From assembly GCA_947576095.1 (NCBI GenBank), contig CANPPW010000002.1, positions 3,776 through 67,775 of the forward strand: a DNA stretch of 64,000 nt, read 5' to 3'. The translations under genes and the position numbers were made by a program. Of the stretch, positions 199 to 55,757 are shown piece after piece; the stretch's first letter is position 1; each line of letters opens with the position of its first letter. The stretch comes from an uncultured Mycoplasmatota bacterium. Its GTDB lineage: Bacteria > Bacillota_I > Bacilli_A > RF39 > UBA660. The notes under the pieces are model-generated. The model worked only from the letters and a program-made list of their open reading frames with translations, was not told where the DNA came from and made no database searches.

Positions 199-1521
199 AT
201 GCAAATGATAAGAGAAGAATATGTAGATCAGTCTGGGGTAGAAGTGAATCAAAAAGAGCGTGATAAAAAAACAATTATGCGTGGACTTTTCTTTTTAGGA
301 GTGTTAATATTTATAATAATTTTATATTTTCTTTTTAAAAATCTTATTGAGAAGAACTATTGTCATAAAATGATTGATAAAATATCTAGTGTAGCTCTTT
401 CTTATACGAAAGATCAAAATATACTCCCTAAAAGTGAAGGGGATTATATTATGTTATCTTTAGATACACTTATAGATAAAAAACAAATTACAGAAAAAGA
501 TATAACAGTGAATAAAAAAATTGCAAGGGGAACTATAAAAATAACAAAGTATAAAAAGGAATATATTGTTACAGTAGAATTGAAAGACTGTGATTACTGC
601 GATTCTAGTAAAAGAAAGTGGTCTAAAGAACTTTCTAAGAAGCCAGATAAGAAAATTTTGGATGTAATCGCGTATTATAATTATTATAATAAAACAAACA
701 ATTATACAGATTGGACAAGTTGGTATACCAATGAACAACTTGCTCCTGATATATCTAAGGAATATAATATAAGATTGCCAAAACAAAAATCTATGCTTCC
801 CAAAATTGCAAGTGATGCAAAAATTATTTCGATAGATCAAGAAACGCAGGAATACTATCGATATCGTGATAAAAAATGGAAATACTATCGTGGTGGTGGC
901 AATTATACCTCTTATTTTTCTTCTATTCAACCAAGTGGATATAGTAGTTATGATCCTGCCACATTAAAATATACAGAATGGTCAGCTTATAGTTTAAATT
1001 ATCCAGAGAAAAAAACATATCGTGAAATACAAAAAACAACTGGTTTTAAATGGTATGTTGAAAAAAATGGTAAGAAGATATATTATAAAAATGGAAATTA
1101 TTTTGTAAGTACTGATGTACCTGATACTTATATAAAGGATAGTAAACAGAGTTCACCTATGTATCGTTATCGTGATAAAAGTTGGAGATGGTATGTAGGG
1201 GAAAAACGAACTTATAGTAGTTATTCTTCAAGTATGCCTAGAGGATTTACAAATAGAGATGATGAACTTTATACATTTGGAGCATATAGTAACTGGAGTG
1301 ATACGTCGTCTTTAAATGCGAATAATAGTGCTTATAGGGTGGAAGAATCAGATACAAGGTATCGATATAGAATTCATTACAATGTTTATTCGTTTGCGAT
1401 TTTCGAAAAGCCAGTCACCAAAGAAGAATTTGAAAAAAAATTACAACTCCCATTAGCTGATCTTTTAAAAAGAGAAGATATGAAGATTGATATTACTTAT
1501 AAATTCCGTTATAAAAACTAA
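199..1521 (+). CDS. Hypothetical membrane-anchored protein with Tyr/Lys/Trp-rich internal repeats (YRYRDKxW). The ORF runs from 22, but the likely true start is an internal ATG at 187, 199 or 205.
   Basis: Single TM helix (GLFFLGVLIFIIILYFLF), then a roughly 400 aa extracytoplasmic region with three copies of a YRYRDK-W-WY motif. Nucleotide-level repeats tatcgatatcgtgataaaaa (857) and tatcgttatcgtgataaaag (1161). The upstream 60 codons look like AT-rich promoter DNA (TGgTAGAAT at 180-188). Confidence 0.5.
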   Translation: MQMIREEYVDQSGVEVNQKERDKKTIMRGLFFLGVLIFIIILYFLFKNLIEKNYCHKMIDKISSVALSYTKDQNILPKSEGDYIMLSLDTLIDKKQITEKDITVNKKIARGTIKITKYKKEYIVTVELKDCDYCDSSKRKWSKELSKKPDKKILDVIAYYNYYNKTNNYTDWTSWYTNEQLAPDISKEYNIRLPKQKSMLPKIASDAKIISIDQETQEYYRYRDKKWKYYRGGGNYTSYFSSIQPSGYSSYDPATLKYTEWSAYSLNYPEKKTYREIQKTTGFKWYVEKNGKKIYYKNGNYFVSTDVPDTYIKDSKQSSPMYRYRDKSWRWYVGEKRTYSSYSSSMPRGFTNRDDELYTFGAYSNWSDTSSLNANNSAYRVEESDTRYRYRIHYNVYSFAIFEKPVTKEEFEKKLQLPLADLLKREDMKIDITYKFRYKN

Positions 1522-1523
1522 CA

Positions 1524-1552
1524 TTAAAAAAGTAGCTCTATGCTACTTTTTA
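1524..1552. terminator. Bidirectional rho-independent terminator between convergent genes
   Basis: AAAAA-AGTAGC-tctat-GCTACT-TTTTT hairpin. Confidence 0.6.
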
Positions 1553-2002
1553 TAAGTAAAATTCATCAATTTCTGTTTTTCTTTCTTCTTTATTTAGATT
1601 TAGTTCAAATATGGAACAAATGGTATTCATAACCTTTTGATTATCATTATTATGTCTAATAATATCTGACAAAGATAAAATACCCACAATTTTATGGTCA
1701 TCTGTGACAAGCAATCTTTTTATTTTATTTTGTTCCATCACTTCAAGTGCAAATTCTATAGTATCATTCTCTTCTACTGTGATGATTTGTTTTGTTAAAT
1801 AATCTTTTATATTTTTTTCATCATGGTTAGCAATAATTTTTACTACGATATCACGATCTGTTAATAGACCTATTATTTTTTTATGTTCGATTATTGGTAA
1901 TAAACCTACATCATTTTCTTTCATTTTTCTAGAAAGATCATATATGGAATCTTGCATGTTGCCATATAGAATTCCTCTGGTCATACAGTCTTTTACTTGC
2001 AT
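1550..2002 (-). CDS. CBS-pair domain protein
   Basis: 150 aa with two CBS-like segments (GLLPIIEHKKIIGLLTDRDIV; IKRLLVTDDHKIVGILSLSDI). RBS upstream. Confidence 0.75.
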   Translation of the reverse strand: MQVKDCMTRGILYGNMQDSIYDLSRKMKENDVGLLPIIEHKKIIGLLTDRDIVVKIIANHDEKNIKDYLTKQIITVEENDTIEFALEVMEQNKIKRLLVTDDHKIVGILSLSDIIRHNNDNQKVMNTICSIFELNLNKEERKTEIDEFYL

Positions 2003-2069
2003 AAATTCACCTCTTTATTAATTTTGACTAAATGAGAGGGATTATGCATATTCTTTTATAGGTGGGACA

Positions 2070-2837
2070 ATGAGAAGAAGAGCTAGAATTAAGAAAAAAA
2101 TATATGTTGGGAATTATATTGGATCACATAAGATTATTTTTACTATTCTTTTATTTTTGATAATGCTTTTTTTATCTTTTGCATGGATTCAGAAAAAAGC
2201 GTTCCCTGTATTTCGTACATTTGCGGAAATAGAATCTACAAAACTTGCCAATATTATAATTAATAAAGCAATTTCAAAACAATTGGTTGAAAATGCTAAT
2301 ATTGAAAATCTTTATATTATTACAAGAAATTCTAATGATGAAATAAAAACCATTGATTTTAATCCTGTAATTGTGAATAAGTTTCTAAGTACTGTAGCAA
2401 GTAGTATTCAACTTTCTTTAAAAAGAATAGAAGAAGGAGATGTAGATTTACTGGAACTTCCTGACGATATACTAGTAGAATATGACAAAGAGAAATTAAA
2501 AAAGGGAATTATCTATGAAATACCTTCTGGTGTTATCTTTGGTAATTCTTTTTTATCTAACTTAGGACCTAAAATTCCAGTTCGTTTTCATTTGATGGGG
2601 GATATCAGCAGTAGTGTAAGCACTAAAATTACCAATTATGGAATTAATAATGCTTTAATAGAAGTTAATTTAAATATAAAACTAACAATTATGAGTGTGT
2701 TACCATTTCTTTCTAAAAAAATAAAAATAGATAATAGTGTACCTATATCTATTAAAATGATTGAAGGTAATATTCCAAGTTATTATTTTAATGGAATTGG
2801 GAAGGAAACTGCAACCTTCTCTCTTCCTACGGATTGA
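2070..2837 (+). CDS. yunB: Sporulation protein YunB
   Basis: 255 aa, N-terminal TM, sequence pattern typical of YunB family. GGTGGG RBS. Confidence 0.65.
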   Translation: MRRRARIKKKIYVGNYIGSHKIIFTILLFLIMLFLSFAWIQKKAFPVFRTFAEIESTKLANIIINKAISKQLVENANIENLYIITRNSNDEIKTIDFNPVIVNKFLSTVASSIQLSLKRIEEGDVDLLELPDDILVEYDKEKLKKGIIYEIPSGVIFGNSFLSNLGPKIPVRFHLMGDISSSVSTKITNYGINNALIEVNLNIKLTIMSVLPFLSKKIKIDNSVPISIKMIEGNIPSYYFNGIGKETATFSLPTD

Positions 2838-2886
2838 TTTTATTGATAAAATAAGTTATGATAAATATAATTTGAGGTGGAGTTTT

Positions 2887-4182
2887 ATGTATCAAAGATA
2901 TGTGAAAGGAGCAAGTTTTCTACTTGTAGGCATTTTTTCTTTCATAATAGGATTTATTATGATAATAAAAACAATGCTTTTATATGATTTTTTTATCCAA
3001 ATGGTTGCTACTTTATTATTTATAGAAGGACTTGCACTCCTTTTAAAAAATCTTTTTACTCAAAATAAAAAAGTAGGTATCAGTAAAGCTTTTTTTCATA
3101 TTTTCATTTCTTTTTTATTGTTAATCTTTCCTCATGTAACGACGCCAGTATTACCATTTTTATTTGGAATCTATTTGATTTTAAACAGTATTATTTATGG
3201 TGTTGATTACTTCATCTCAAGAAAAAATAAGCTAGCAGGAAGGATCCATTTAATTTTAAAATCTATTTTTTTTCTTTTCTTTTCAGTTCCTTTTCTTTTT
3301 AGTCCCCGATCTAATATTAAGCATGTACTTATTTTATTTGGTATATATTTTATTTTCTTTGGCATTTCTTCTATTATTGACTGTATCGAAGAATGGAATT
3401 TTAAATATAAGAATTTGTTAAAAAGAAAAATAAGAGTGCCACTGCCTATATTTTTAACTACTTTTATACCTTATTCCATTTTAAGAGAAATGAATGAGTA
3501 TTTACAGGAGCCTCCTTTAAAACCACTTCTCCAAAAACAAAATAGTAGTGATTATGATCTAGAAGTATTTGTTCATGTTTCGCGTCATGACTTTACAGGT
3601 CCTGTAGGACATGTAGATTTATGGTTTGATGACATGATTATTTCCTATGGAGGATATGATATGAAATCTCGAAAGTGTAAAGATACAATTGGAGATGGAG
3701 TTTTATTTACTTGTGATAATAAAGAAAAATATATTGATTTTTGTCAAAAATATAATAAAAAGGTTTTATTTGGCTTTGGGATTCGTTTAACAGAACAAGA
3801 AAAGAAAAGTATAAAGAATCAGTTAGAATGTTTAAAGAAAGACATGTACGAATGGATTCCTTATTATAAAAGAGCGCTTATAAATCATGAAGATGTTTCT
3901 GAAGAAGATTATAACGATTATGTGAGTACATTGTATAAAATGACAAATGCCACCTTTTATAAATTTTATGGTGGAAAATTTAAAACTTTTTTTGTTTTTA
4001 GAACTAGCTGTGTTGCATTAGCGGATTATATACTAGGTGCCGCTGGAATTGATATTATAAAAGCCAATGGTTTTATTTCTCCAGGAAGTTATTATGATTA
4101 TTTATATAGAGAATTTTCAAGAAAGAATAGTATGGTTGTATCTTATCATGTATATACAAAGGAGGGGGATTTTTATGAGTAA
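2887..4182 (+). CDS. Polytopic membrane protein with C-terminal cytoplasmic domain (possible permuted papain-like His...Cys fold)
   Basis: About 6 TM helices in first 230 aa. C-terminal domain has GHVDLWFDD ... RTSCVALADYIL. AGGTGGAG RBS before ATG 2887. Confidence 0.5.
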   Translation: MYQRYVKGASFLLVGIFSFIIGFIMIIKTMLLYDFFIQMVATLLFIEGLALLLKNLFTQNKKVGISKAFFHIFISFLLLIFPHVTTPVLPFLFGIYLILNSIIYGVDYFISRKNKLAGRIHLILKSIFFLFFSVPFLFSPRSNIKHVLILFGIYFIFFGISSIIDCIEEWNFKYKNLLKRKIRVPLPIFLTTFIPYSILREMNEYLQEPPLKPLLQKQNSSDYDLEVFVHVSRHDFTGPVGHVDLWFDDMIISYGGYDMKSRKCKDTIGDGVLFTCDNKEKYIDFCQKYNKKVLFGFGIRLTEQEKKSIKNQLECLKKDMYEWIPYYKRALINHEDVSEEDYNDYVSTLYKMTNATFYKFYGGKFKTFFVFRTSCVALADYILGAAGIDIIKANGFISPGSYYDYLYREFSRKNSMVVSYHVYTKEGDFYE

Positions 4183-4672
4183 AGTTTTTCATACATTTTC
4201 CCCTATTTTTGATGAAAATTCTGAAATTCTTATTTTAGGTTCTATGCCGTCTGTAGCTTCTAGAGAAAATGGATTTTATTATGGACATCCTAGAAATCGT
4301 TTTTGGAAAATTTTATCTGATATATATTGTGTAGATTTAACCACAAAGGAAGATAGGGTTGCCTTTTTACATAAAAAGCACATTGCTCTTTGGGATGTGA
4401 TTGCATCTTGTGATATAGAAGGATCTAGAGATCATACAATTTGTAATGTTGTATGTAATGATATTTGTGGATTACTAAAGAAAACAAAGATTAAATTTAT
4501 TTTTTCCACAGGGAAAAAGGCGACTTTGTTATATAATAGGTATATTTATCCACAGACAAAAATTAAAACAATATATTTGCCATCTTCAAGTCCTGCCAAT
4601 CAAAGTATAAAATATGAGGAAATTTTAGAATCTTATCAACAACTGAAAATTTGTTCTATAAAAAAAATCTAA
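4175..4672 (+). CDS. DNA-deoxyinosine glycosylase / UDG-superfamily glycosylase (family-6/HDG-like motif)
   Basis: LGSMPSVASRENGFYYGHPRNRFW motif. GGAGGGGGA RBS 5 nt before ATG 4175. Confidence 0.6.
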   Translation: MSKVFHTFSPIFDENSEILILGSMPSVASRENGFYYGHPRNRFWKILSDIYCVDLTTKEDRVAFLHKKHIALWDVIASCDIEGSRDHTICNVVCNDICGLLKKTKIKFIFSTGKKATLLYNRYIYPQTKIKTIYLPSSSPANQSIKYEEILESYQQLKICSIKKI

Positions 4673-6544: not shown

Positions 6545-7522
6545 ATGGGAATACTTAATAAATTTAAAAAAATATTTGATCATAAAAGTGAGGATGAAAA
6601 AAAAGATTTGGAACTTTATGATAAAGGTCTTTCTAAAACTAGAGGTGAATTTGTTTCAAAACTAAATCTTTTGACGATGAAATATAATAAAATTGATGAA
6701 GGATATTTTGATGAATTAGAGGAAATATTAATTATGGCAGATATTGGTGTAGATACAGTAATGTCATTTATTGATAAACTAAAAAAAAGAGTAAGACATG
6801 AAAATATTACATCAGCAGAATCTTTGAAAGAAATGATTGTTGATGAAATGTTTATTATTTATGTGGATAGTGATATTATTGAGAATAAAATTCATTATGC
6901 TAAGGAAGGGCCCACTGTTCTTTTATATGTTGGTGTAAATGGTGTTGGGAAAACGACAACCATTGGGAAAATGGCTTATCAGTTAAAAAAATCAGGAAAA
7001 AAGGTTTTATTAGTTGCAGGAGATACTTTTAGAGCTGGAGCTGTAGAACAATTAATAGAGTGGGGAGATAAAACGTCCTGTGATGTAATATATAAGGAAA
7101 ATGCAGACCCATCTAGTGTTATATATGATTCTCTTTTGAAAGCAAAAGAAGAAGCTTATGATGTGGTTTTAATTGATACTGCAGGTAGACTGCAGAACAA
7201 GGTTGGGTTAATGAAGGAACTTGAGAAAATGAATAAAGTTATTGGAAATTTAATTGAAAATGCGCCACATGAAACACTCCTTGTAGTAGATGCGACAACA
7301 GGACAAAATGGTATTAGTCAGGCTAAAAGTTTTAAAGAAATTACTAATATTACAGGAATTGTATTGACAAAATTAGATGGTACAGCCAAGGGAGGAATTG
7401 TTCTTGCGATTAAAGGGGAAACAAAAATTCCTGTTAAATATGTTGGACTTGGTGAAGGAAAAGAAGATCTTAAAGTTTTTGATATAGAAAATTATATTTA
7501 TGGATTATTTAAGGAGTGGTAA
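6545..7522 (+). CDS. ftsY: Signal recognition particle receptor FtsY
   Basis: GVNGVGKTTTIGK P-loop, DTAGR, TKLDGTAKGG motifs. Confidence 0.92.
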   Translation: MGILNKFKKIFDHKSEDEKKDLELYDKGLSKTRGEFVSKLNLLTMKYNKIDEGYFDELEEILIMADIGVDTVMSFIDKLKKRVRHENITSAESLKEMIVDEMFIIYVDSDIIENKIHYAKEGPTVLLYVGVNGVGKTTTIGKMAYQLKKSGKKVLLVAGDTFRAGAVEQLIEWGDKTSCDVIYKENADPSSVIYDSLLKAKEEAYDVVLIDTAGRLQNKVGLMKELEKMNKVIGNLIENAPHETLLVVDATTGQNGISQAKSFKEITNITGIVLTKLDGTAKGGIVLAIKGETKIPVKYVGLGEGKEDLKVFDIENYIYGLFKEW

Positions 7523-7523
7523 T

Positions 7524-7787
7524 ATGCATACAAAAACGATTGAATGGAAAATAGATAATAAAATAGGTGTTTGGCTTCAACTGCTTGTAAGCATTCCCCT
7601 TTTGATTTTTGTTGTTTTTTACTTTTTTAATAAAAATACAGTCCCCCTTTTAATGGGAACTGCTTCTATATTTTTGTTTTTAGGTGCTTATAATAATTTT
7701 AAATATTATAAAAGAAAATATATGACTTATTTATATCTTATTGTAGGAAGTATTTTACTTATAGATTTTATAACAAAGGTATTTTAA
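7524..7787 (+). CDS. Small two-TM membrane protein, hypothetical
   Basis: GGAGTGG RBS 5 nt upstream of ATG 7524. Two hydrophobic helices. Stop overlaps ylxM start (TAATG). Confidence 0.5.
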   Translation: MHTKTIEWKIDNKIGVWLQLLVSIPLLIFVVFYFFNKNTVPLLMGTASIFLFLGAYNNFKYYKRKYMTYLYLIVGSILLIDFITKVF

Positions 7788-8080
7788 TGGAAAATAAAAT
7801 TTATATAAGTAATTTATTTGATTTATATGAGGGATTATTAACCGATAAACAAAAAGAATATTTTAAGGCTTATTATTTTGATGATTTAAGTTTATCAGAA
7901 TTAAGTGAGAATTATCATATTAGTAGAAATGCTATACACAAGCAAATTAAAGAAGCTATTTATAAACTACAGTTTTATGAAGAAAAATTAATGCTTTATC
8001 AAAAGAAAAAAAGAATATATGATATAATGAATCAAATAGAAGATCATCATATTAAAGAACAATTAAAAGAATTATTATAG
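7787..8080 (+). CDS. ylxM: YlxM/p13-like DNA-binding protein (UPF0122, sigma-70 region-4-like HTH)
   Basis: LFDLYEGLLTDKQKEYFKAYYFDDLSLSELSENYHISRNAIHKQIKEA matches the YlxM family. Canonical position immediately after ftsY. Confidence 0.75.
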   Translation: MENKIYISNLFDLYEGLLTDKQKEYFKAYYFDDLSLSELSENYHISRNAIHKQIKEAIYKLQFYEEKLMLYQKKKRIYDIMNQIEDHHIKEQLKELL

Positions 8081-8090
8081 GGAGGCTTTT

Positions 8091-9854
8091 ATGCTAGGAA
8101 AAATCGTTTATATTGGGGATAATGTAGCCCATTTACAAATTGATAAAACACAGAGGCTTGCGGAAAATTTAATGAATATGCATATTATTTTCGAAGATCA
8201 TAATAAAAAAATTTTAGGGGAAGCTTATGATGTTGGCGAAGATATCATTAAAGTTCGCTTTTTAGGTGAAATTGTAGGGAATCATTTTGTAGGTGGTGTG
8301 ATTCGTAAACCCACCTTATCTGCTAAGCCTAGGATGATTACACCAGAAGAAATTAGGTTGATTGTGGGAGAAGATAATGATAGTAGTTTACCTCTTGGAC
8401 ATTCACCATTATATGATAATTGTCCTATTCATGTAGACATTAATGAATTATTTAGCAATCATTTGGCTATTTTTGGGAATAGTGGGAGTGGTAAATCTTG
8501 TGGTGTAGCCCGCCTTTTACAAAATGTTTTTCATAATCAAAAGCTTCTTCCCTATAAAGCCAACTTTTTAATTTTTGATGCTTATGGAGAATATCACAAT
8601 GCATTTATGTCTTTAAACCAAATTAACCCTAATTTTAATTTTAAATTTTATACAACCAATGAACAGGACCTAAAGGAAGGCGGGGAGAGGATACGGATTC
8701 CTTTATGGCTTATGAATTTAGATGATATGGCTTTATTATTAGATGCCGAAAAACATGCTCAATTATCAATTATTGAAAGAATGTTAAAATTAGTTAGAAT
8801 TTTTACAGAAGATGATGAAGGATCCAATCAATATAAAAATCATTTAATAGCAAAGGCAATTATGGCCATTTTATACACCAATCAAACAGCATCTAGTAAA
8901 AGAGATGATATTTTTTCTATTTTAAGTACTTGTTCAACTCCTGAATTTAATACAGAAGCACCAGTAAAAGGAATTGGTTATGTTAGGAAATTTAGGGAAT
9001 GTTTTACAATCGATACAGCTGGTAATTTTACAGAAAGTGTTTTGGTTACACAGTATATATCTAGCTTTATTGATGAAAAACTAGATAATTATGAACCTAC
9101 TTCTAATCATTATTTTACTCTTTTAGATTTAGAAAAGGCTTTAAATTTTACTTTAATTTCAGAGGGACTTTTAAAAAATGAAAAAGCATATAATGATGCT
9201 GTTACATTAAAGGTTAGACTTCATTCTATTTTAGTAGGGGCAAATGCACGATTTTTTGATTTTCCGAGTTATATTACATTAGAAAATTTTATATCTAGTT
9301 TGGTTTCTTATAATGGAAGAAAAGCACAAATTGTTAATTTTAATTTAGAAGATGTAGATGATTCTCTTGCTAAAGTGATTGTAAAAATATTTTCAAGATT
9401 TTTATTTGAATTTACAAAAAAATTATCAAATCGTGCTACTATCCCCTTTCATTTATTTTTAGAAGAATGTCATAGATATGTACAAAATGATAATGATAAG
9501 TATTTATTAGGTTATAATATTTTTGATCGAATTGCCAAAGAGGGCCGTAAATATGGACTTATGTTCAATCTTATTTCCCAAAGACCTGTTGAAATATCTG
9601 AAACGGTTATTTCTCAGTGTAGTAACTTTATTATTTTTAAAATGACACATCCAAGAGATTTAGATTATATTAAAAAAATGCTACCTAATATTAGTGCAGA
9701 TGTTATAGAGAAACAAAAAAGTTTACAACCAGGAACTTGTATTGCCTTTGGACGAGCATTTAAAGTTCCTATGATTATAAGAATGGATATGCCTTCTCCA
9801 GAACCACATAGTAGTAACTGTGATGTTGTAGATACATGGCAGGTACATCGATAA
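8091..9854 (+). CDS. HerA/DUF87-family ATPase (FtsK-HerA superfamily; N-terminal HAS-barrel-like region)
   Basis: Walker A GNSGSGKS, Walker B FLFLEECHRY, HerA-type REGRKYGLMFNLISQRPVEIS. 587 aa. Start 10 nt after ylxM stop. Confidence 0.75.
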   Translation: MLGKIVYIGDNVAHLQIDKTQRLAENLMNMHIIFEDHNKKILGEAYDVGEDIIKVRFLGEIVGNHFVGGVIRKPTLSAKPRMITPEEIRLIVGEDNDSSLPLGHSPLYDNCPIHVDINELFSNHLAIFGNSGSGKSCGVARLLQNVFHNQKLLPYKANFLIFDAYGEYHNAFMSLNQINPNFNFKFYTTNEQDLKEGGERIRIPLWLMNLDDMALLLDAEKHAQLSIIERMLKLVRIFTEDDEGSNQYKNHLIAKAIMAILYTNQTASSKRDDIFSILSTCSTPEFNTEAPVKGIGYVRKFRECFTIDTAGNFTESVLVTQYISSFIDEKLDNYEPTSNHYFTLLDLEKALNFTLISEGLLKNEKAYNDAVTLKVRLHSILVGANARFFDFPSYITLENFISSLVSYNGRKAQIVNFNLEDVDDSLAKVIVKIFSRFLFEFTKKLSNRATIPFHLFLEECHRYVQNDNDKYLLGYNIFDRIAKEGRKYGLMFNLISQRPVEISETVISQCSNFIIFKMTHPRDLDYIKKMLPNISADVIEKQKSLQPGTCIAFGRAFKVPMIIRMDMPSPEPHSSNCDVVDTWQVHR

Positions 9855-10283
9855 AAATGTAATAAAAAAACACTTTTATGATGTTACTTGAAAATAAGGG
9901 GATTTTCATTTTAAGCTGTAAAAAACTGTCAATATCATTTGAGTAACTGGAAATTTCTAGATTTTCCAATTCATAAGCAATGTCAATCATGGTTTTATTT
10001 TATCAGTAAAAGTTCTTTGAGCAGAATCTGGATCACTGTAGTCCTTATTGATTCATTCCCATCTTCTCAGTAAGAAATCAAAATTGCTTTTTCTTCAAGT
10101 AATCTTATGAAAAGAGAGATCATTAATAAAAAATGAGGTGTATGAATACCTCTGTTTTTCATATTATTTACAGATTTTTAAATAATAAATAGAATTGTGC
10201 CAATCAAAGGGGGCTAGTAAAAAAATGATAAATGTGATAGACTAGAAAAGTAAAGTAGGAAAATAGAAGTAAGGAGAGATAGA

Positions 10284-11510
10284 ATGAAAAGGAAAAATGG
10301 ATTTACATTAATTGAACTATTAGCTGTTATAGTTATACTTGCTATCATTGCACTTATTACTTCTCCAATTGTGATAGGTGTAATAGATAAATCGAGAAAA
10401 GAAGCGTTTAGAGATTCCGCATATGGAGTGATAGAAGCAGGAAGAATCTATTACTTAGAGAGTGTAGCAGATACCAATGCATTTACAGGAAAAACATTTG
10501 ATTTATCAAAGGGAGAGTTAAAATTGTCAGGAGAAAAACCAAAGGAAGGAACTCTTGAAATAAAAGATGACGGAAAAATGATTCTTATGATGCATAATGG
10601 TAATTATTGTGCTACAAAGAGTGAGGATAAAGAGACTGTTGAAATCAGTAAATTGGCAGATGGAAAATGTGAAATACAGGAAAATAATAGTGGAGCACAA
10701 ACAATTCGTGATATGGGTGTAGTAACATCTGGTGATGGATTGTATGTAAATGAACCTAATTTAGGTGGTGGTCATGTATTCAAAGGGACAAATCCAAACA
10801 ATTTATTATTATTTGATAATAAATGCTGGAGTGTTATCAGTGTAGAAGATAACGATGAAATTAAAATTATTTATGAAGGAGAAGCTGCTGATAGTACCAT
10901 TTGTACAAGAAACGGAGATGGTGGTTCACCAGGAACTTGGCAGTGGAATGCGAGTAATAATTGGCATGATGAAGATTTATCGGTTCGTAGTAAACTAGAG
11001 GGGATAGCAAGTGGACAAAGATGGAATGACTTTAAAAAGATGACAAGGTTAGATAAGGTATCTGATCATGCTTGGAATGTAGGGGCTGTTACAGTTGATA
11101 TTTATAGTGGTGGTAGCATTCAGGAGTTATTAGAACAAGAAAAGAATGGGAAAGATCCATCTTGGTCTACAGAAATTTCTAGTAAGTGGAATAATAAACT
11201 TGGTCTTATTAATGTAAGTGATGTTGTTAAGTCATCTACAAGTTCAAGATGTACATCTGGAGTATGGGGGACTATGATTGGTGCCTATTTACCTGATATA
11301 TGTGGGAATGAAAGTTACCTTGTAAAAAATTATGCATATTGGACATTAAATGCGGTAACCAATGGTAATGTTGCTGCATCTTCAGGAAATGCTTCAAATA
11401 GTGGATATTTGTCAAATAATTTTCTTGGTGTTCGTCCTGTTTTATATTTAAATAGTGATGTAGAAATTACGGGAACTGGAACGAGTGCTGATCCATTTGT
11501 TGTAGCTTAG
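10284..11510 (+). CDS. Large prepilin-type (class III signal peptide) protein, paralog 1
   Basis: N-terminus MKRKNG/FTLIELLAVIVILAIIAL is a type IV pilin N-methylation motif with Glu at +5. 408 aa. C-terminus ...GVRPVLYLNSDVEITGTGTSADPFVVA. Confidence 0.7.
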   Translation: MKRKNGFTLIELLAVIVILAIIALITSPIVIGVIDKSRKEAFRDSAYGVIEAGRIYYLESVADTNAFTGKTFDLSKGELKLSGEKPKEGTLEIKDDGKMILMMHNGNYCATKSEDKETVEISKLADGKCEIQENNSGAQTIRDMGVVTSGDGLYVNEPNLGGGHVFKGTNPNNLLLFDNKCWSVISVEDNDEIKIIYEGEAADSTICTRNGDGGSPGTWQWNASNNWHDEDLSVRSKLEGIASGQRWNDFKKMTRLDKVSDHAWNVGAVTVDIYSGGSIQELLEQEKNGKDPSWSTEISSKWNNKLGLINVSDVVKSSTSSRCTSGVWGTMIGAYLPDICGNESYLVKNYAYWTLNAVTNGNVAASSGNASNSGYLSNNFLGVRPVLYLNSDVEITGTGTSADPFVVA

Positions 11511-11524
11511 TTTTAAATAAATCA

Positions 11525-11568
11525 ATATACATAACCTCTTTGTGTAGGAGGCATATGTATATTTTTTA
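11525..11568 (+). terminator. Rho-independent terminator after pilin-like gene
   Basis: Long imperfect hairpin (ATACATAACCTC...GGAGGCATATGTAT) followed by TTTTTT. Confidence 0.5.
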
Positions 11569-11617
11569 TGCTTCAATGAGTCTAATTGAAATGGACCTTT
11601 AAAAATAAAAAAATACA

Positions 11618-11626
11618 TGATATAAT
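11618..11626 (+). promoter_or_regulatory. Extended -10 promoter element (TGATATAAT) for gatCAB
   Basis: TGnTATAAT match 25 nt upstream of gatC RBS. Confidence 0.5.
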
Positions 11627-11650
11627 ATTATCCGATATAAGAAAGGTGAT

Positions 11651-11947
11651 TTGATGAACAATCTATCTGAAAAAGATGTAAAACATGTTGCTGATTTAGC
11701 TAGAATTTATATAAAAGAGGAAGAAATCCCTAAATATATGGTGAATTTACAAAGTTTATTAAATGAAGTAGATAAAATAAAAGATATAAAGGGGTATGAT
11801 GATGAGATGCTTATTACACCTGTTAATCATGAGACAATTCCTAGAAAAGATGAGATGAAAGAAACTTTAACTTTCCAGGAAGTTTCTTATCTTGCTCCTA
11901 AGGTTAGTGGTAATTATATAGAGGTACCGGTGATGATTCATGAATAA
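11651..11947 (+). CDS. gatC: Glu/Asp-tRNA amidotransferase subunit C
   Basis: About 97 aa, LARIYIKEEEIPKY pattern, immediately upstream of gatA with overlap. Confidence 0.85.
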   Translation: MMNNLSEKDVKHVADLARIYIKEEEIPKYMVNLQSLLNEVDKIKDIKGYDDEMLITPVNHETIPRKDEMKETLTFQEVSYLAPKVSGNYIEVPVMIHE

Positions 11948-13379
11948 TTATTTAGACTTGTCCATTTTGGAAATACACAATTTATTAAAAGAAAAAAAAA
12001 TAAAACCATTAGATTTGGTTATGGAAGCTTTTGAGAGAATTGAAGAGAAAAAAGAATTAAATGTTTTTATAACACTTTGCAAGGAAGAAGCGATAAAGAA
12101 AGCAAAAGAATTGGAAGAAAAAGATGTAGATAATATTTTGTTTGGTATACCAGTTGCGATTAAGGATAATATATCTACTAAAGATATTAGAACAACTTGT
12201 GCATCAAAAATGTTAGAAAATTATATTCCTTTATACAATGCTACTGTGATTGATAAAATTAATGAAAAAAATATGATTATCATTGGAAAAACAAATATGG
12301 ATGAATTTGCTATGGGGTCTACTAGTCGTACGAGTTATTTTGGACCTCCTTTAAATGCTGTAGACAAAACGCGTATTGCTGGAGGCTCTTCTGGAGGAAG
12401 TGCATCTGCTGTTGCCGCACATCTTATTCCTATATCACTTGGAAGTGATACAGGTGGATCTATTAGACAACCAGCTAGTTATAATGGAATTGTAGGAATG
12501 AAACCTACTTATGGCAGTATTTCAAGATATGGTTTAGTTGCTTTTGCATCAAGTTTAGATCAAATTGGCCCTATGAGTAGAAATGTTTATGAAAATGCCT
12601 TGTTTTTAAATACCCTAATTGGAAAAGATGAGAAGGATTTAACAACCACAGATAGGGTAGAGGATTTTACAAGGTATATTGGTGAAGATATAAAAGGCAT
12701 GAAAATTGGTGTGCCAGAATATTTTATGAAAGAAGATGTAAATCCTGAAATTAAAAATCATGTGGAAAAAATTATATCTATGTTAAAAGAACATGGAGCT
12801 ACTGTGGAATATATTACCATTGATTATATTGAAAATGCAGTAACATTATATCAAATTATTGCTATGGGTGAAGCAAGTAGTAATTTAGCAAGATTTGATG
12901 GAATTCGTTATGGATATGCGAGTGGTGATCGAGAAGATTTAGATATGTTTTATAAAAAAACTAGGGCAGAAGGTTTTGGCGAAGAAGTAAAAAGAAGAAT
13001 TATGGTGGGAAGTTACTTATTAAGTGGTGAGAATGCAGAAATTTATTATAATAAAGCATTATCTATTCGAGATGATATTAAAAAAAGTTTTGAGAAAGCT
13101 TTTGCAAATTATGATTTGATTATTGGTCCTACAACGACTACTACCGCGTACAAACTTACAGATGACCTTGATAATCCTATTAAAGCGTTTTTAGATGATA
13201 TCCTAGTAATTCCTGTAAATATGGCTGGTCTTCCTGGAATGAGTATTCCGATTGGAAAAGATGAGACAAATCTTCCAATTGGACTTCATATTATTGGTAA
13301 CTTCTTTGAAGAAGCCATTATGTATAAACTAGCAGCTTTTATTGAAACAGAATTAAAGAAAATAGGGGAGGGAAAGTAG
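11940..13379 (+). CDS. gatA: Glu/Asp-tRNA amidotransferase subunit A
   Basis: Amidase signature GGSSGGSASAVAA. 479 aa. Confidence 0.93.
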   Translation: MNNYLDLSILEIHNLLKEKKIKPLDLVMEAFERIEEKKELNVFITLCKEEAIKKAKELEEKDVDNILFGIPVAIKDNISTKDIRTTCASKMLENYIPLYNATVIDKINEKNMIIIGKTNMDEFAMGSTSRTSYFGPPLNAVDKTRIAGGSSGGSASAVAAHLIPISLGSDTGGSIRQPASYNGIVGMKPTYGSISRYGLVAFASSLDQIGPMSRNVYENALFLNTLIGKDEKDLTTTDRVEDFTRYIGEDIKGMKIGVPEYFMKEDVNPEIKNHVEKIISMLKEHGATVEYITIDYIENAVTLYQIIAMGEASSNLARFDGIRYGYASGDREDLDMFYKKTRAEGFGEEVKRRIMVGSYLLSGENAEIYYNKALSIRDDIKKSFEKAFANYDLIIGPTTTTTAYKLTDDLDNPIKAFLDDILVIPVNMAGLPGMSIPIGKDETNLPIGLHIIGNFFEEAIMYKLAAFIETELKKIGEGK

Positions 13380-14795
13380 ATGGATACTTATAAACTGACA
13401 GCAGGAATAGAAGTACACTGTGAATTAAAATCAAAAACAAAAATGTTTTCTGATTCCCTTAATGAATATCATTCTGCACCGAATTGCAACATAAATGCAA
13501 TTGATTTAGCATATCCAGGAGTATTACCAAGCGTGAATATGTATGGAATAGAGCTTGCACTAAAGGCAGCCCTTTTGCTGAATTGTCAAATTCAAAAGAG
13601 GATGTATTTTGATCGTAAAAATTATTTTTATCCAGATCTTCCTAAGGGATATCAGATTACGCAAGCAAGAACACCAATCGGAACTGATGGATATGTAGAA
13701 ATTATGGTAAATGATCAAAAGAAAAGAATTAGAATCCATGATATTCATATTGAAGAGGATACTTGTAAAAATACACATTTAGATACTTGTTCTTTACTTG
13801 ACTTTAATCGAAGTGGAGTCCCTTTAATTGAAATTGTAACAGAACCTGATATAAAAAGCGATGAGGAAGCTATGCTCTATCTAGAAAAATTAAGAGAACT
13901 TCTTTTATATGCCGATATTTCTGATTGTAAAATAGAAGAAGGAAGCATGCGATGTGATGTAAATGTATCTGTTAGTAAAACAGATATATTGGGAATACGT
14001 ACTGAGACGAAAAATGTGGGTTCTATTCGTAATGTAGGATTGGTGATTGAAAGTGAAAAGGAAAGACAAATATCACTTTTAGAAAATGGTGAAACAATTC
14101 GTGAAGAAACTAGAAGATATGATGAAAAAACAAATCAAACTATACTAATGCGTGTAAAAGAAACTGGAAATGATTATCGATATTTTCCAGAACCAGATAT
14201 TCCACCTGTCACTTTGGAAGATACTTATATAGAAGCAGTCAAAAAATCTCTTCCAGTGATGCCAGATGAAAGAAGAGAACTTTATAAAAGAGCAGGTATT
14301 CAAAATGTAAATATAGAAAAAATTATTCAAAACAAAATGATTAGTGATTATTTAATGGATTTAAACCATATAAATTTAGTAATAGCTAGTAATTTGTTAT
14401 TAGGTGATGTTTCTTTTTATTTAAATAAACATAGTAAGTCTCTTTGGGATGTAGCAATGTCAAAGGAAAATTTTGAAAGTTTAGTTACCCTTTTAGATAC
14501 ATCTAAAATGTCTAGCAAACAGGTAAAAGAAATTCTTCCAGAAATATTAGAAAAGAATACCGATGTGAATGAAATTTTAAAAAGAGATGGTATGACACAA
14601 GTGACAGATAAAACTTTCATAAAACAAATAGTGGATATTGTTTTAAAGGAAAACCCTGATTCTGTTTTAGAATATCAATCTGGTAAGGATAGAGCCTCTA
14701 AATATTTGATGGGGCAAGTTATGAAACAGTCAAAAGGAAAGGTAAATCCAGCTATTGCTAATGAGATTTTGATAGATACTTTAAATCGCTTGTAA
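13380..14795 (+). CDS. gatB: Glu/Asp-tRNA amidotransferase subunit B
   Basis: N-terminus GIEVHCELKSKTKMF. 471 aa. C-terminal GatB/YqeY domain. Confidence 0.93.
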   Translation: MDTYKLTAGIEVHCELKSKTKMFSDSLNEYHSAPNCNINAIDLAYPGVLPSVNMYGIELALKAALLLNCQIQKRMYFDRKNYFYPDLPKGYQITQARTPIGTDGYVEIMVNDQKKRIRIHDIHIEEDTCKNTHLDTCSLLDFNRSGVPLIEIVTEPDIKSDEEAMLYLEKLRELLLYADISDCKIEEGSMRCDVNVSVSKTDILGIRTETKNVGSIRNVGLVIESEKERQISLLENGETIREETRRYDEKTNQTILMRVKETGNDYRYFPEPDIPPVTLEDTYIEAVKKSLPVMPDERRELYKRAGIQNVNIEKIIQNKMISDYLMDLNHINLVIASNLLLGDVSFYLNKHSKSLWDVAMSKENFESLVTLLDTSKMSSKQVKEILPEILEKNTDVNEILKRDGMTQVTDKTFIKQIVDIVLKENPDSVLEYQSGKDRASKYLMGQVMKQSKGKVNPAIANEILIDTLNRL

Positions 14796-48049: not shown

Positions 48050-48085
48050 AAAAAACGATTGATTTTAAAGAGTCAATCGTTTTTA
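48050..48085. terminator. Bidirectional terminator between pyk and tmcAL
   Basis: AAAAACGATTGA-N10-TCAATCGTTTTT. Confidence 0.65.
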
Positions 48086-49245
48086 AATGTATTTATATTG
48101 ATTTGAATGGGAGGCATTTTAAATTCTTTTTCAATTAATTCCTTTTTTTTATTTTCTGGAAGTAGAGTGGCATACACACTTGTTATACGCATTTCCAAAT
48201 CTAACATAGCATTTTTATAGGAGCCAAAATTTGTAACAATAGGAAGTGTAATTTCCTTCTTTTTTTCGTTTAGATATTTACGCCCTGTTTGATTAAATCC
48301 AAGTACGCGAATATATTCTATATGTGAGAATTTCATTGCTTCTTCCTTTGTAAAATTACATAGAATATGAGTAAACATTCTAGAAATTCGATTGTAAGTA
48401 TACCGTTTTGTTTTTATTTTTTGTATTAAAGATTCTAGCGTTTCAGATTCATAAATATGTTTTTTGATTCTAGAAGCAATCGATTCATCTACTGTTTGAA
48501 ATTGTTGAAGATTTGATAGATGTAGTAGAATTTGGTATTTTAAAAATGGAAAATAATCCTCATTAAAGTATATATGATTTAAGTGTTTTTTTGTTTCAGA
48601 AGGAATATAATAGGTAATATCTTTCCCATCTTTGATAGCATTTCTAATTGCACTTGCACTACTTATTTTTTGTAAATTTAAATTATGATATTCTCCTATT
48701 CTTAAAATGGGAATTGGTTTGATTTTACTTTTCTTTTCGTCAATTGCCTTTATATAACCTAAAGCTAGTAAGTCGTTAGGGGAATCAATCATATTTACCT
48801 TAAAACAATTAAGAGCTTTGGCACAGGCCGTTGGATAATTAAATCCTTTTTTAATATACTGTTTAATTTTACAGTTATATTCATCATTATGCATTTGTAT
48901 GGATGCTAATTTTTGAAGTAAATGGATATCAGCACATTCGCTACCAAATACAATCGCCTCAACCTTTAGAGCATCTAATATTTCAATTGCACCTCTAGCA
49001 AATATATCAGCACTTTGTGTGGCAAAAGGAAAGGGAAGTTCTATAACCAAATCAATTCCCATTTTCAGTGCGATCTCTGTTTTTTCCCATTTATTTATAA
49101 TGCTAATTTCACCTCTTTGCATAAAGTGTGAACTCATGATAAGAATAATGGCAGAATCAGGAAATAGCTCTTTTGTTTTTTCTAGATGATAGATATGACC
49201 ATTGTGAAATGGATTGTATTCACAAATAATACCTACAGATTTCAT
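48073..49245 (-). CDS. tmcAL: tRNA(Met) cytidine acetate ligase TmcAL (YlbM family nucleotidyltransferase)
   Basis: MKSVGIICEYNPFHNGHIYH matches YlbM/TmcAL N-terminus. Confidence 0.8.
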   Translation of the reverse strand: MKSVGIICEYNPFHNGHIYHLEKTKELFPDSAIILIMSSHFMQRGEISIINKWEKTEIALKMGIDLVIELPFPFATQSADIFARGAIEILDALKVEAIVFGSECADIHLLQKLASIQMHNDEYNCKIKQYIKKGFNYPTACAKALNCFKVNMIDSPNDLLALGYIKAIDEKKSKIKPIPILRIGEYHNLNLQKISSASAIRNAIKDGKDITYYIPSETKKHLNHIYFNEDYFPFLKYQILLHLSNLQQFQTVDESIASRIKKHIYESETLESLIQKIKTKRYTYNRISRMFTHILCNFTKEEAMKFSHIEYIRVLGFNQTGRKYLNEKKKEITLPIVTNFGSYKNAMLDLEMRITSVYATLLPENKKKELIEKEFKMPPIQININTFKND

Positions 49246-49396
49246 ATTTCACCTCTTTTTTTTAATCATAACATATTATTCTTGTTAAGAAAAGGATTTC
49301 ATAGAATGTATTAGGGTGCGAATGAAATAGACCTTATATAGATTTTATAATATTAGTTTTAAAAATGTGTTATACCAAGATGAGGAAGGAAATGAA

Positions 49397-49616
49397 ATGA
49401 AAGAAAGGGAAAGAATCATTATAAATTATTATTTTGGTTTTCATAATCATAATCGAATGAAACAGTCAAAAATAGCCAATATATTAAGCATTGATTTCTA
49501 GAATTACGCTTCGAACTTTAAAAGATATCAAATGCAATTTACAAAATCAGGATATTATAGAAATGTTCTCTTCGCAGAATACGAAAAAAATATATAATAT
49601 TGTTTCTTTGAATTGA
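49397..49616 (+). pseudogene. Small sigma-70-region-4/YlxM-like HTH gene interrupted by an apparent +2/-1 frameshift near 49500
   Basis: GAGGAAGGA RBS. ORF MKERERIIINYYFGFHNHNRMKQSKIANILSIDF* continues in another frame as SRITLRTLKDIKCNLQNQDIIEMFSSQNTKKIYNIVSLN*. Joined, it resembles an ERERxxxxLYYFxGxSxxEIAxxLGISxSxVxxxLxRAxxKL HTH. Confidence 0.4.
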
Positions 49617-49649
49617 TTGTTTTTTTGTAGAAATTTTAGTATAATATTA

Positions 49650-50150
49650 ATGCTTGGAGGTGGAATTTTGGAAATTGATTTATTAAAACTTAAAAATGAT
49701 TTAATAGACCAGGTTGATATTGATGAGACTTTATCTTTTCAAAAAGAAGACTTAAAAAATACAACGATTTTAGAATTAAAAAATGTACATGTAAGAGGAA
49801 TGATTACTCGTAGTACAGATCACTATAATCTAAGTTTAATAATTGATGGGGTAATGATTTTGCCATGTGCTTTAACGCTTAAACCAACTTCCCATGCTTT
49901 TACAATATCAATAGAGGATGATTTATTGACATTATTTAAAGAAATTGATGAAAATATAAAAAAAATAGAAAATAGTATTGATATTTTACCAATTATATGG
50001 GAAAATATATTAATGGAAATTCCCATAAAAGTTGTAAATGACGATGTTTCTTCTATGAAAATAGAAGGAGATGGTTGGAAATTTATAACTGATGAAGAAA
50101 CAAAAGAAGTTGTGAATTCTGAATTTGAAAAATTAAAGGATTTATTTTAA
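49650..50150 (+). CDS. yceD: YceD/DUF177-family protein (23S rRNA accumulation protein) preceding rpmF
   Basis: Conserved position upstream of L32. Alternative TTG start at 49668 with GGAGG RBS. Confidence 0.7.
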
Positions 50151-51860: not shown

Positions 51861-53978
51861 ATGAATATGCAAAATCCATATGAAGAAAACTTACAAAAAC
51901 CCCTTGAAAAATATGGTAGAAATATTGTTCAGAACGTAAAAGATGGGAAGGTAGATCCTGTGATTGGTCGTGATGATGAAATTCGTTCAATTACACGAAT
52001 TTTATCTAGAAAAACAAAAAATAACCCTGTTTTAATTGGGGAACCAGGAGTAGGGAAAACGGCTATCATAGAAGGTTTAGCACAAAGGATTGTGAAAGGT
52101 GATATTCCTGATTCCTTGAAAGGAAAAACAATTTGGGAATTAGATATGGGCTCATTAATTGCGGGTGCTAAATATAGAGGAGAGTTTGAAGAAAGATTAA
52201 AAGCAGTTTTAAAAGAAGTAAAAGATTCAGATGGTGAAATCATTATGTTTATTGATGAAATCCATATGATTGTAGGTGCAGGCGCTTTAGAAGGGGCAAT
52301 GGATGCTGGAAATATGTTAAAACCTATGCTGGCACGTGGTGAGATTCATGTTATTGGTGCCACAACTCTCAATGAATATAGAAAATATATAGAAAAAGAT
52401 GGTGCCTTAGAGCGTAGATTTCAAAAGGTACAAGTGAAAGAACCAACTGTTTTGGATGCAATCACCATTTTAAGAGGATTGAAGCAAAGATTTGAAGTTT
52501 ATCATGGTGTAACTATTAAAGATAAGGCCTTAATAGCTGCCGCCACTTTATCAGATCGTTATATTACGGATCGTTTTTTGCCAGATAAAGCGATAGATTT
52601 GATTGATGAAGCTTGTGCAACAATAAAGGTACAAATGGATTCTGTTCCGACCAATTTGGATACACTTTCTCGTAATATTATGAGACTTGAAGTGGAAAAA
52701 CAGGCTTTAAAGAAAGAAAAAGATGATATATCACGTAACAGAGTAGAAGAGATTAATAAAAAATTAGAAAAAATGAAGGAAGAAGAATCCCAATTAAGAA
52801 AAGAATGGGAAGATGAAAAGCATATTAATGATCAAATAAATGGGAAAAAAGAGGAGATAGAAAAATGTCATTTTAAACTTGAACAAGCTGAAAATGATTA
52901 TGATTTAGAAATGGCAGCAAAATTGCGGCATGGGACTCTTCCTAAACTAGAAGCTGAATTAGAAGATTTAAAGAAACAAGATATATCAAAACTATTAAGT
53001 GATACAGTTGATGAAGAATCGATCGCATCTATTATTTCTAAATGGACTAATATTCCTATTAGTAAATTAGTAGGTACAGAAAGGGAAAAATTATTACATC
53101 TTAAAGATAATCTGAAAAAAAGAGTTAAGGGACAGGATCAAGTATTAACACTTGTTAGTGAAGCAATTTTGCGAAGTCGTTCTGGTATTAAAGATCCTAA
53201 TAAACCGATCGGTTCTTTCATTTTTTTAGGTCCAACGGGTGTTGGTAAGACAGAAGTGGCGAGAAGTCTTGCCTATGAACTATTTGATGATGAAAGACAT
53301 ATGGTTCGGATTGATATGAGTGAATATATGGAGTCACATAGTGTATCAAGACTTGTTGGAGCTCCTCCAGGATATATAGGATATGATGAGGGAGGACAAC
53401 TGACAGAAGCTGTTAGAAGAAATCCTTATAGTATTGTTTTGTTTGATGAAATTGAAAAAGCTCATAAAGACGTTTTTAACTTACTTTTACAAATTTTAGA
53501 TGATGGTAGAATTACAGATTCACAAGGAAGAACAGTTGATTTTAAAAATACAATCATTATTATGACATCTAACTTAGGTAGTGAATATATACTTGAAAAT
53601 AAAAATGAAGCGAAAGAACTGGTGATGAATGAATTAAGACATACCTTTAAACCTGAGTTTTTAAATCGTATTGATGAAATTATTTTATTTAATTCACTAG
53701 AAAAAGGTATTGTTTATGATATTTTAAATAAAATTATTTCGGAAATTGAACAAAGATTATCAGATAAAAAAATAAAAATTGTATTAGATGAGAAAGCTAA
53801 AGATTATATTATTGAAAGTGCTTATGATGAAAGATATGGTGCAAGACCAATTAAGCGTTTTGTTTCACGGCATTTAGAAACCTTAATCGCCAAAAATATT
53901 ATTGCTAGTCAAATTCATTTTGGAGAAACGATTCGAGTAAGTGCTAATAAAGAAAATTTGATATTAGAGGGGAAATAG
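51861..53978 (+). CDS. clpB: ClpB-type AAA+ disaggregase lacking the N-terminal domain
   Basis: Two AAA+ modules ([10 protein letters not shown]; GPTGVGKTE), long coiled-coil M-domain between them. Protein begins at the D1 region ([23 protein letters not shown]). AAAGGAGG RBS and promoter sit directly upstream, so no room for an N-domain exon. Confidence 0.85.
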
Positions 53979-55481: not shown

Positions 55482-55757
55482 ATGTTTGGAAGAAGATGTT
55501 GTAATCGCCAAAACATGGGATTTGGTTATGGAAACCAAGGTATGAATACTATTACAGAAGGTCAGGTTGTAGAACCAACTATTACAAAATGTGTAGAACA
55601 AGAATGTTATCATGAAGTACCACACATTTGCCCAATTCATACTCATGTAATTAAACGCGATATTTACAATCATACTTACACTCCACAATATTCTTGCTCA
55701 CAAGAAAATCAAGTTGTGAACAACGATTGTGGTGGATGTTCTGGTTTTGCTAACTAA
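55482..55757 (+). CDS. Spore coat protein CotD-like (His/Cys-rich)
   Basis: ECYHEVPHICPIHTHVIKRDIYNHTYTP pattern resembles CotD family. Upstream CATATGATA is sigma-K -10-like. Confidence 0.5.
   Translation: MFGRRCCNRQNMGFGYGNQGMNTITEGQVVEPTITKCVEQECYHEVPHICPIHTHVIKRDIYNHTYTPQYSCSQENQVVNNDCGGCSGFAN

Follow-up and report, generated by a model that had tools for sequence, protein, structure and literature searches.

Why does the gene for a HerA-family ATPase stand among the genes of the signal recognition particle (SRP)? The question is raised by a stretch of 64,000 nucleotides, referred to here as the window, from an uncultured Mycoplasmatota bacterium (contig CANPPW010000002.1, positions 3,776 to 67,775). 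A gene encoding a HerA-family protein of 587 amino acids (herA) directly follows ylxM, which itself lies behind ftsY, the gene for the SRP receptor. The ylxM-ffh pair is otherwise very stable in Firmicutes. Each characterised HerA, for its part, is the motor or the platform of an effector docked to it, which is NurA in DNA repair and either SIR2 or DUF4297 in defence against phages. According to the best reading of the locus, this herA is neither part of a defence island nor the ATPase gene of a mobile element, and it does not belong to a dedicated YlxM-HerA module. The explanation favoured here, to which about an even chance is given, is that herA encodes a HerA translocase without a partner, inherited vertically and co-transcribed with SRP genes, that has a housekeeping role.

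Family membership and predicted fold

Judged by its sequence and its predicted fold, the protein encoded at 8091-9854 (plus strand) is a genuine HerA-family ATPase, as an earlier note on this DNA had read from its motifs. It scores 85.8 bits against the Pfam family DUF87/HerA (PF01935; gathering cut-off 23.2), and its best profile match is the PADLOC HerA model PDLC04102 (E = 2e-111). A sequence search of the PDB matched HerA chains only. The best of these is the DUF4297-HerA chain 9c1m (E = 3e-45), accompanied by 8xau and 8ziq, by the SIR2-HerA chains 8wiv and 8j4u and by Sulfolobus HerA (4d2i, E = 2.7e-31).

The protein consists of an N-terminal beta-barrel (residues ~1-85), a RecA-like core and a helical insertion (~210-405). 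The Walker A motif GNSGSGKS occupies residues 129-136, the LEECHRY motif residues 457-463 with the Walker B/catalytic glutamate pair at 458-459, and the EGRKYG...SQRP box residues 484-499. Within these motifs, an alignment of 34 sequences, SIR2-linked HerAs among them, shows no variation at G129, G132-S136, E458, E459, R462, R486 and Q497-P499, and the same key residues are at least 90% conserved among 76 family members. The AlphaFold model (predicted local distance difference test score 85.7; predicted template modelling score 0.83) places strands at residues 4-82, followed by an alpha/beta core with helices at 210-405. When this model was compared with the PDB by Foldseek, the top 50 matches were all HerA chains, headed by 8yhx (E = 1.8e-30; template modelling scores 0.74/0.77), the HerA of a Sir2-HerA system (PMC11514289).

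The NCBIfam equivalogs for HerA are all missed widely. The two anti-phage HerA models score 188.7 against a cut-off of 850 (NF042944) and 157.4 against 800 (NF042943), while the values are 94.9 (cut-off 970) for helicase_HerA (NF040819) and 118 (cut-off 800) for NF040937. By these scores, the protein is described by no curated NCBIfam family. It carries neither a transmembrane segment nor a gamma domain.

Embedding in the SRP operon

The listing of open reading frames (ORFs), together with family scans, places ftsY, a small membrane protein ORF, ylxM and herA in one tightly packed string on the plus strand (6545-9854). The first gene of the string, ftsY (6545-7522, plus strand), is identified by TIGR00064 (348.5 bits; cut-off 260.7) as well as by PF00448 and PF02881. 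The ORF behind it (7524-7787, plus strand) encodes 87 amino acids with two to three hydrophobic segments; no significant family match was found for it, its Pfam matches all being sub-threshold. This product had been described earlier as a small protein with two transmembrane segments, of which the hydrophobic membrane character stands while the segments may number three. The next gene, ylxM (7787-8080, plus strand), encodes a 97-amino acid helix-turn-helix SRP accessory protein of the family UPF0122. It scores 92.4 bits against PF04297 (cut-off 22.7; E = 2.3e-26), passes the NCBIfam YlxM equivalog NF045758 (87.6 bits; cut-off 80) and has 1xsv and 1s7o as relatives in the PDB.

Inside the end of ftsY (stop codon TAA, 7520-7522) lies an AAGGAG ribosome-binding site (7511-7516), and the ATG of the membrane ORF follows at 7524. 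The stop codon of that ORF and the start of ylxM overlap as TAATG (7785-7789). At the last junction, the ribosome-binding site of herA, GGGAGG (8080-8085, plus strand), read directly from the sequence, and the ylxM stop codon (TAG, 8078-8080) overlap, and the herA ATG at 8091 comes 5 nucleotides after that site, leaving a spacer of 10 nucleotides. Coordinates, motifs and the ten-nucleotide gap are all as the earlier note had given them.

Terminator-like sites on the plus strand were not found between 6471 and 10134 in a consensus scan. The first one after herA, a hairpin with a T-run at 10135-10152 (plus strand), is a candidate end of the transcription unit, picked out by the consensus scan only. 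This hairpin is bidirectional, and a 71-amino acid ORF on the minus strand (9775-9990) overlaps the end of herA. Between herA and a pilin-like (prepilin-type) gene lies a spacer of 430 nucleotides (9855-10283) with no credible ORF; searches at Rfam gathering thresholds and with ARAGORN found no structured RNA or tRNA in the window, this spacer included. An internal promoter for herA was considered and rejected, as promoter-like sites number 28 against 25.6 expected in shuffled sequence, i.e. no excess. The content of guanine plus cytosine (GC) is flat across the herA locus. Outside the operon, 44 kb downstream, lies ffh, which encodes the SRP54 homologue (54045-55352, plus strand; TIGR00959, 607 bits; cut-off 473.2). 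It directly follows clpB (51861-53978), the displaced position in which it had been reported.

Conservation of the locus among relatives

A scan of one genome per GTDB species returned 80 loci with a relative of this gene, all of them from metagenome-assembled genomes (MAGs) of uncultured low-GC Bacilli or 'Tenericutes' of the gut or rumen. About 8000 clusters, formed at 90% identity, came back from a protein search, and the best 120 are 70-100% identical to the window protein. In a library clustered at 50% identity, only about 20 full-length representatives of the close family appear, followed by HerAs of 630-720 amino acids at ~30-33% identity. The neighbours of the window gene were mapped onto the 80 loci, 43 of which hold orthologues of at least 65% identity; upstream sequence is available for 41 of these.

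Co-occurrence of ylxM and herA is conserved among these close relatives: ylxM lies directly upstream in 39 of the 41 testable orthologues, namely in 38 loci where it was detected by tblastn and in one (L027) where it is partly masked by a run of N. The two remaining orthologues (L039 and L040) have no ylxM upstream. Among the 38 loci, the spacer between ylxM and herA measures 1-19 nucleotides in 36 and ~100 nucleotides in two, and ftsY precedes ylxM in every one. A small hydrophobic ORF of 68-124 amino acids is found between ftsY and ylxM in 30 of them and is absent in eight. Its position is syntenic but its sequence poorly conserved, and as some relatives do without it, it is no obligate component. 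The flanks vary from species to species while the four-gene core is kept, with rnjA or the gene for a 1685-amino acid protein upstream and gatCAB, a two-component system or a pilin-like gene downstream.

Twelve species still carry ffh downstream of herA and in the same orientation, at distances from 61 nucleotides (L012) and 73 nucleotides (L029) up to 3027 nucleotides. The ancestral order in the window clade is therefore ftsY-(membrane ORF)-ylxM-herA-ffh: herA came to be inserted into the ylxM-ffh pair, from which ffh was separated later. The herA-ffh junction became an insertion site and broke completely in the sub-clade to which the window belongs. HerA had earlier been said to occupy the slot of ffh, which is correct insofar as herA follows ylxM and ffh is distant, but no replacement took place, as those 12 species keep ylxM-herA-ffh. 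A relic of ffh downstream of herA was also sought; in L006, an identical copy of the window locus, the ffh query matched only ftsY.

Evolutionary rate and the wider family

Across 38 genomes, mean pairwise identity is 72.3% for HerA, 74.7% for FtsY and 58.1% for YlxM. The distance matrices of HerA and FtsY are correlated (r = 0.60), and none of 999 permutations reaches this value. As a HerA that evolves as slowly as FtsY, and with correlated distances, points to vertical inheritance under constraint, these sequence comparisons identify herA as a vertically inherited, strongly constrained gene, unlike a defence cassette.

In a neighbour-joining tree, the orphan HerA family is monophyletic and comprises the window clade and three further branches; its sister group is formed by SIR2-linked HerAs of Firmicutes. 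Each further branch has its own genomic surroundings. In the branch of 55-57% identity (15 species), the order is gatCAB, a spacer of ~850 nucleotides without long ORFs, herA, and then tcdA/thiF, rarA/mgsA and a xer-type recombinase gene. Where context is conserved in the branch of 41-49% identity (22 species), herA follows lon, a SpoVID-like gene, a conserved ORF, yqeG and yqeH, and is itself followed by tmcAL (minus strand)-yceD-rpmF or by a SNF2 helicase gene. Members of the branch of ~34% identity (relatives of P0132) have a monocistronic herA near recX, rpsP-khpA, rpmB, dnaE and spoIIGA-sigE. In three of four loci of this deep branch (L091, L093 and L094), a gene for a PrsA-like PpiC rotamase (~3500-4630, minus strand) is divergent from herA, with a shared intergenic region of 370-500 nucleotides. 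Neither ylxM, ftsY nor ffh was found within 5-6 kb of herA in the three further branches, and no adjacent partner is conserved there.

Several features of these neighbourhoods recur. The window holds tmcAL (minus strand)-yceD at 48073-50150 with no adjacent herA, so the yqeH-type site is empty here. In the window, 4-6 kb separate these genes from the displaced ffh downstream, and in the 41-49% branch (L062, L064 and L066) herA stands directly upstream of the same block with rpmF. One neighbourhood thus takes in both alternative sites of herA and the new one of ffh. The gatCAB genes adjoin herA in two branches on opposite sides, as herA-(pilin)-gatCAB in the window sub-clade (10284-14795) and as gatCAB-herA in the 55% branch (L045-L057). 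Genes with a prepilin N-methylation signal are found from a few hundred bases to a few kb from herA in the window (10284-11510), in L004 (7953-9905) and in L030, L060, L075 and L091.

Some metagenomic members of the family (P0121, P0122, P0126 and P0124) carry disordered extensions of ~165-360 amino acids rich in Ser, Asn, Thr and Pro. The extension of P0121 contains a repeated EHNPALDFG motif, and in P0126 the Walker A/B and SQRP motifs are also degenerate. C-terminal extensions were considered as effector domains and rejected, the tails of P0121, P0122 and P0126 being of low complexity and without a Pfam domain.

Proposed history and role

The observations above suggest the following course of events. 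A distinct, monophyletic orphan branch of HerA would have been inherited vertically in uncultured low-GC gut Bacilli, whose herA loci include sporulation genes. Within the window clade, herA would have entered the SRP operon between ylxM and ffh, and a later rearrangement in the window sub-clade would have shifted ffh by 44 kb. The gene would now be the last cistron of the operon ftsY-membrane ORF-ylxM-herA. By analogy with solved HerAs, its product probably assembles into a ring through the N-terminal beta-barrel and the RecA-like core, and would then use ATP to translocate nucleic acid through a central pore. The task of such a motor would be a DNA transaction of the housekeeping kind, for which it might need no partner or one whose gene lies elsewhere. 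A constitutive cellular role is suggested by the housekeeping contexts of the gene and also by Thermus HepA. This lineage-wide bacterial HerA, the product of a core gene, influences competence, the donation of DNA and the tolerance of UV (PMC5448004).

Some points weigh against this account. First, its choice of substrate is drawn from homology to other HerAs, and DNA is thus the probable rather than the observed cargo. Secondly, L033 (69% identity, SRP-operon type) and L073 (45% identity, yqeH type) are contigs of one MAG, CANQYN01; some branches may therefore consist of paralogues rather than relocated orthologues, or the CANQYN01 bin may be mixed. Thirdly, the tight spacing of ylxM and herA that ~36 species conserve would fit a functional link too. 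Members of the family are, moreover, named only 'ATP-binding protein' or 'DUF87' in the sources. Finally, every HerA characterised to our knowledge acts with a docked partner (NurA, SIR2 or DUF4297), and a solitary HerA would be unusual.

The component families are known. The novelty lies in a large clade of HerAs that have no effector and behave as core genes do, and in the insertion of one of its members into the ylxM-ffh pair; a literature search found no description of an orphan core-genome HerA in Firmicutes. The clade is well populated, with thousands of clusters at 90% identity returned and at least 80 species of gut Bacilli, lacks a linked effector and is sister to the SIR2-linked HerAs. 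Either a defence-type motor has been exchanged between immune and housekeeping functions, or a HerA works alone or with an unknown partner, and either outcome would widen ideas of what HerA rings do. As the host organisms are uncultured, study of the protein would be heterologous.

Alternative explanations

The alternative that survives best, which is nonetheless unlikely, holds that the protein is a chromosomally fixed defence component, an anti-phage sensor or motor that is intrinsically toxic or whose effector is encoded elsewhere in the genome. Its ancestry would fit. The nearest outgroup consists of the HerAs of SIR2-HerA systems (28-33% identity over ~83-91% of the length), in which a SIR2_2 gene (PF13289-type) overlaps the herA start, as in a Capnocytophaga conjugative element or integrative conjugative element (L087), in Dokdonia (L088), on an Enterococcus plasmid (L089) and on Listeria plasmids (L090). 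The top profile match is a model from the defence database PADLOC, and in structure the protein comes closest to chains of Sir2-HerA and DUF4297-HerA systems. The plasmid relatives reach at most ~32% identity, both of those examined are SIR2-linked, and they serve as an outgroup and not as orthologues. The anti-phage equivalogs, however, score far under their cut-offs.

The effectors of such systems were also sought. With four SIR2 partners as queries (tblastn at E <= 10 and a profile hidden Markov model), no SIR2 turned up, either in the 64 kb of the window or up to ~6 kb from herA in 86 related loci. The genes adjoining the window herA belong to neither NurA nor DUF4297, having been identified as other families, so the orphan status ascribed to it earlier is borne out. 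A PADLOC scan of the 68 window ORFs gave HerA models along with generic ATPase and Fic-type matches, and no SIR2 or DUF4297 effector model is among the 25 families listed of the 39 matched. Defence genes are typically patchy and located in variable islands, whereas herA keeps to one syntenic place across dozens of species and matches FtsY in rate and distance pattern. Given this housekeeping position, the FtsY-like rate and the correlated distances, the lineage-specific defence module that had been proposed for the locus is improbable. The N-terminal barrel points the same way. It is the region that fails to align with SIR2-linked HerAs, the PADLOC match starting at residue 94 and tblastn matches at ~residue 52, and in solved complexes it is the docking surface for SIR2 and NurA (PMC11472057); its divergence therefore fits a partner that is lost or different.

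A link to SRP or secretion is less probable still. HerA would here act with YlxM, and perhaps with Ffh/FtsY or the small membrane protein, in the targeting or secretion of membrane proteins, on the model of FtsK-like ATPases that move proteins, such as EssC/EccC of type VII secretion systems. The insertion falls precisely between ylxM and ffh, the 1-19-nucleotide spacer is kept in 36 species, and the ribosome-binding site of herA overlaps the ylxM stop codon. YlxM is an SRP accessory protein; that it binds Ffh and small cytoplasmic RNA and modulates the SRP GTPases is known only from S. mutans (PMC8546722, citing PMC4010984). The PrsA-like foldase gene divergent from herA in three of the four deep-branch loci would also suit a function in secretion. 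In the three other branches of the family, however, none of ylxM, ftsY and ffh lies within 6 kb of herA, L039 and L040 lack ylxM although they are close orthologues, the membrane ORF is lost in eight of 38 loci, ffh itself has drifted away in most species, and HerA is without a transmembrane segment. A literature search found no paper that names HerA together with YlxM.

The earlier idea that YlxM is the partner of HerA accordingly finds no support at the level of the family, as the 55%, 41-49% and ~34% branches adjoin gatCAB, yqeG-yqeH and the PrsA-like gene, respectively. The association being limited to one clade, shared transcription and translation offer the most economical account of the tie to ylxM, with herA hitch-hiking on a constitutive, essential operon rather than contributing to a two-protein machine. 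The SRP-partner reading is kept open because the coupling is unusually tight and the point of insertion unusually specific. It would gain a bolder form, also held to be quite improbable, if domestication had turned a HerA of the same stock as the SIR2-HerA defence motors into a housekeeping factor in physical partnership with YlxM (and Ffh), a translocase motor linked to co-translational membrane targeting. Translational coupling of ylxM and herA would then signify stoichiometric co-assembly and not mere co-expression.

As HerA and FtsK are members of the same superfamily of pumping ATPases, the protein might substitute for FtsK/SpoIIIE in chromosome segregation or in pumping DNA into the spore of an organism with a reduced genome. 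The lineage has the sporulation genes YunB, CotD-like, CotE and SpoIIGA/SigE, and the long disordered tails of some family members are reminiscent of FtsK linkers. This substitution is very unlikely, as L094 encodes a canonical FtsK/SpoIIIE (872-3043; alpha, motor and gamma domains present) only 2 kb from an orphan herA, so that the two coexist in at least one branch. The window protein has neither transmembrane segments nor a gamma domain, and it scores 18.9 against a threshold of 24 for FtsK_SpoIIIE (PF01580).

The weakest alternative, a VirB4/TraG/FtsK-type ATPase of an integrated mobile element, is effectively refuted: family scores are sub-threshold throughout (TrwB_AAD_bind PF10412, 16.7 bits against 20.5; the VirB4-like CD1110 model NF045971, 29.7 against 325; EccCb, 18.1), the neighbours are ftsY, ylxM, rnjA and gatCAB, the 25 Pfam families listed for window ORFs are housekeeping and include no relaxase or type IV secretion family, GC content is flat and synteny is kept in dozens of species. 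A phage origin was likewise rejected, as phage records gave only five weak partial matches, e.g. a terminase (28% identity, 55% of the length covered).

Other features of the window

Further observations concern the surroundings of the displaced ffh. The ClpB homologue encoded in front of it (51861-53978) has only 705 amino acids and matches positions 145-852 of the ClpB model (1119.9 bits; cut-off 1232), and is thus without the N-terminal domain. Right behind ffh, the ORF at 55482-55757 is CotD-like (PF11122, E = 4.6e-7). In Firmicutes, ffh is usually followed by rpsP; in L091, rpsP-khpA is found near the orphan herA instead.

Comparison with known systems

Among characterised systems, SIR2-HerA (Nezha) is close in several respects. 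The window protein shares its domain order, its invariant key ATPase residues and the C-terminal residues P570, P572, S574 and W583; SIR2-HerA proteins form the sister clade in the neighbour-joining tree, and 8yhx is the best structural match. In SIR2-HerA loci, however, SIR2 overlaps the herA start, whereas the window herA is preceded by ylxM and has no SIR2. Its product is also 30-110 amino acids shorter (587 compared with 615-694) and divergent in the beta-barrel region, and the gene occupies a fixed core-genome position rather than an integrative conjugative element, plasmid or island.

DUF4297-HerA systems (9c1m, 8xau and 8ziq) provide the best PDB sequence matches, with E from 3e-45 to 3e-39, and have the same fold. 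The sequence match falls into two separate stretches, however, and identity in the structural alignment is ~20-22%. No gene for a DUF4297/Cap4-type nuclease adjoins the window herA, the upstream gene being that for YlxM.

HerA-NurA of archaea and Deinococcus, together with Thermus HepA, represents machines for DNA end resection, hexameric translocases composed of a HAS-barrel and a RecA-like core, which are housekeeping and lineage-wide. The fold of the window protein resembles 4d2i and 9x1m of this group. In sequence it is far more distant from them, as the match to 4d2i covers the C-terminal half only and the helicase_HerA score stays at 94.9 against 970, and there is no adjacent NurA.

The last comparison is with the ftsY / ylxM-ffh cluster of Firmicutes, of which the window ftsY and ylxM are bona fide members and to which 12 relatives remain faithful in keeping ffh in the same orientation. 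The window clade departs from it in the 1.76-kb herA between ylxM and ffh and in the small membrane ORF between ftsY and ylxM, and the window itself in having ffh 44 kb away. An unusual disruption of the ylxM-ffh pair is thereby documented.

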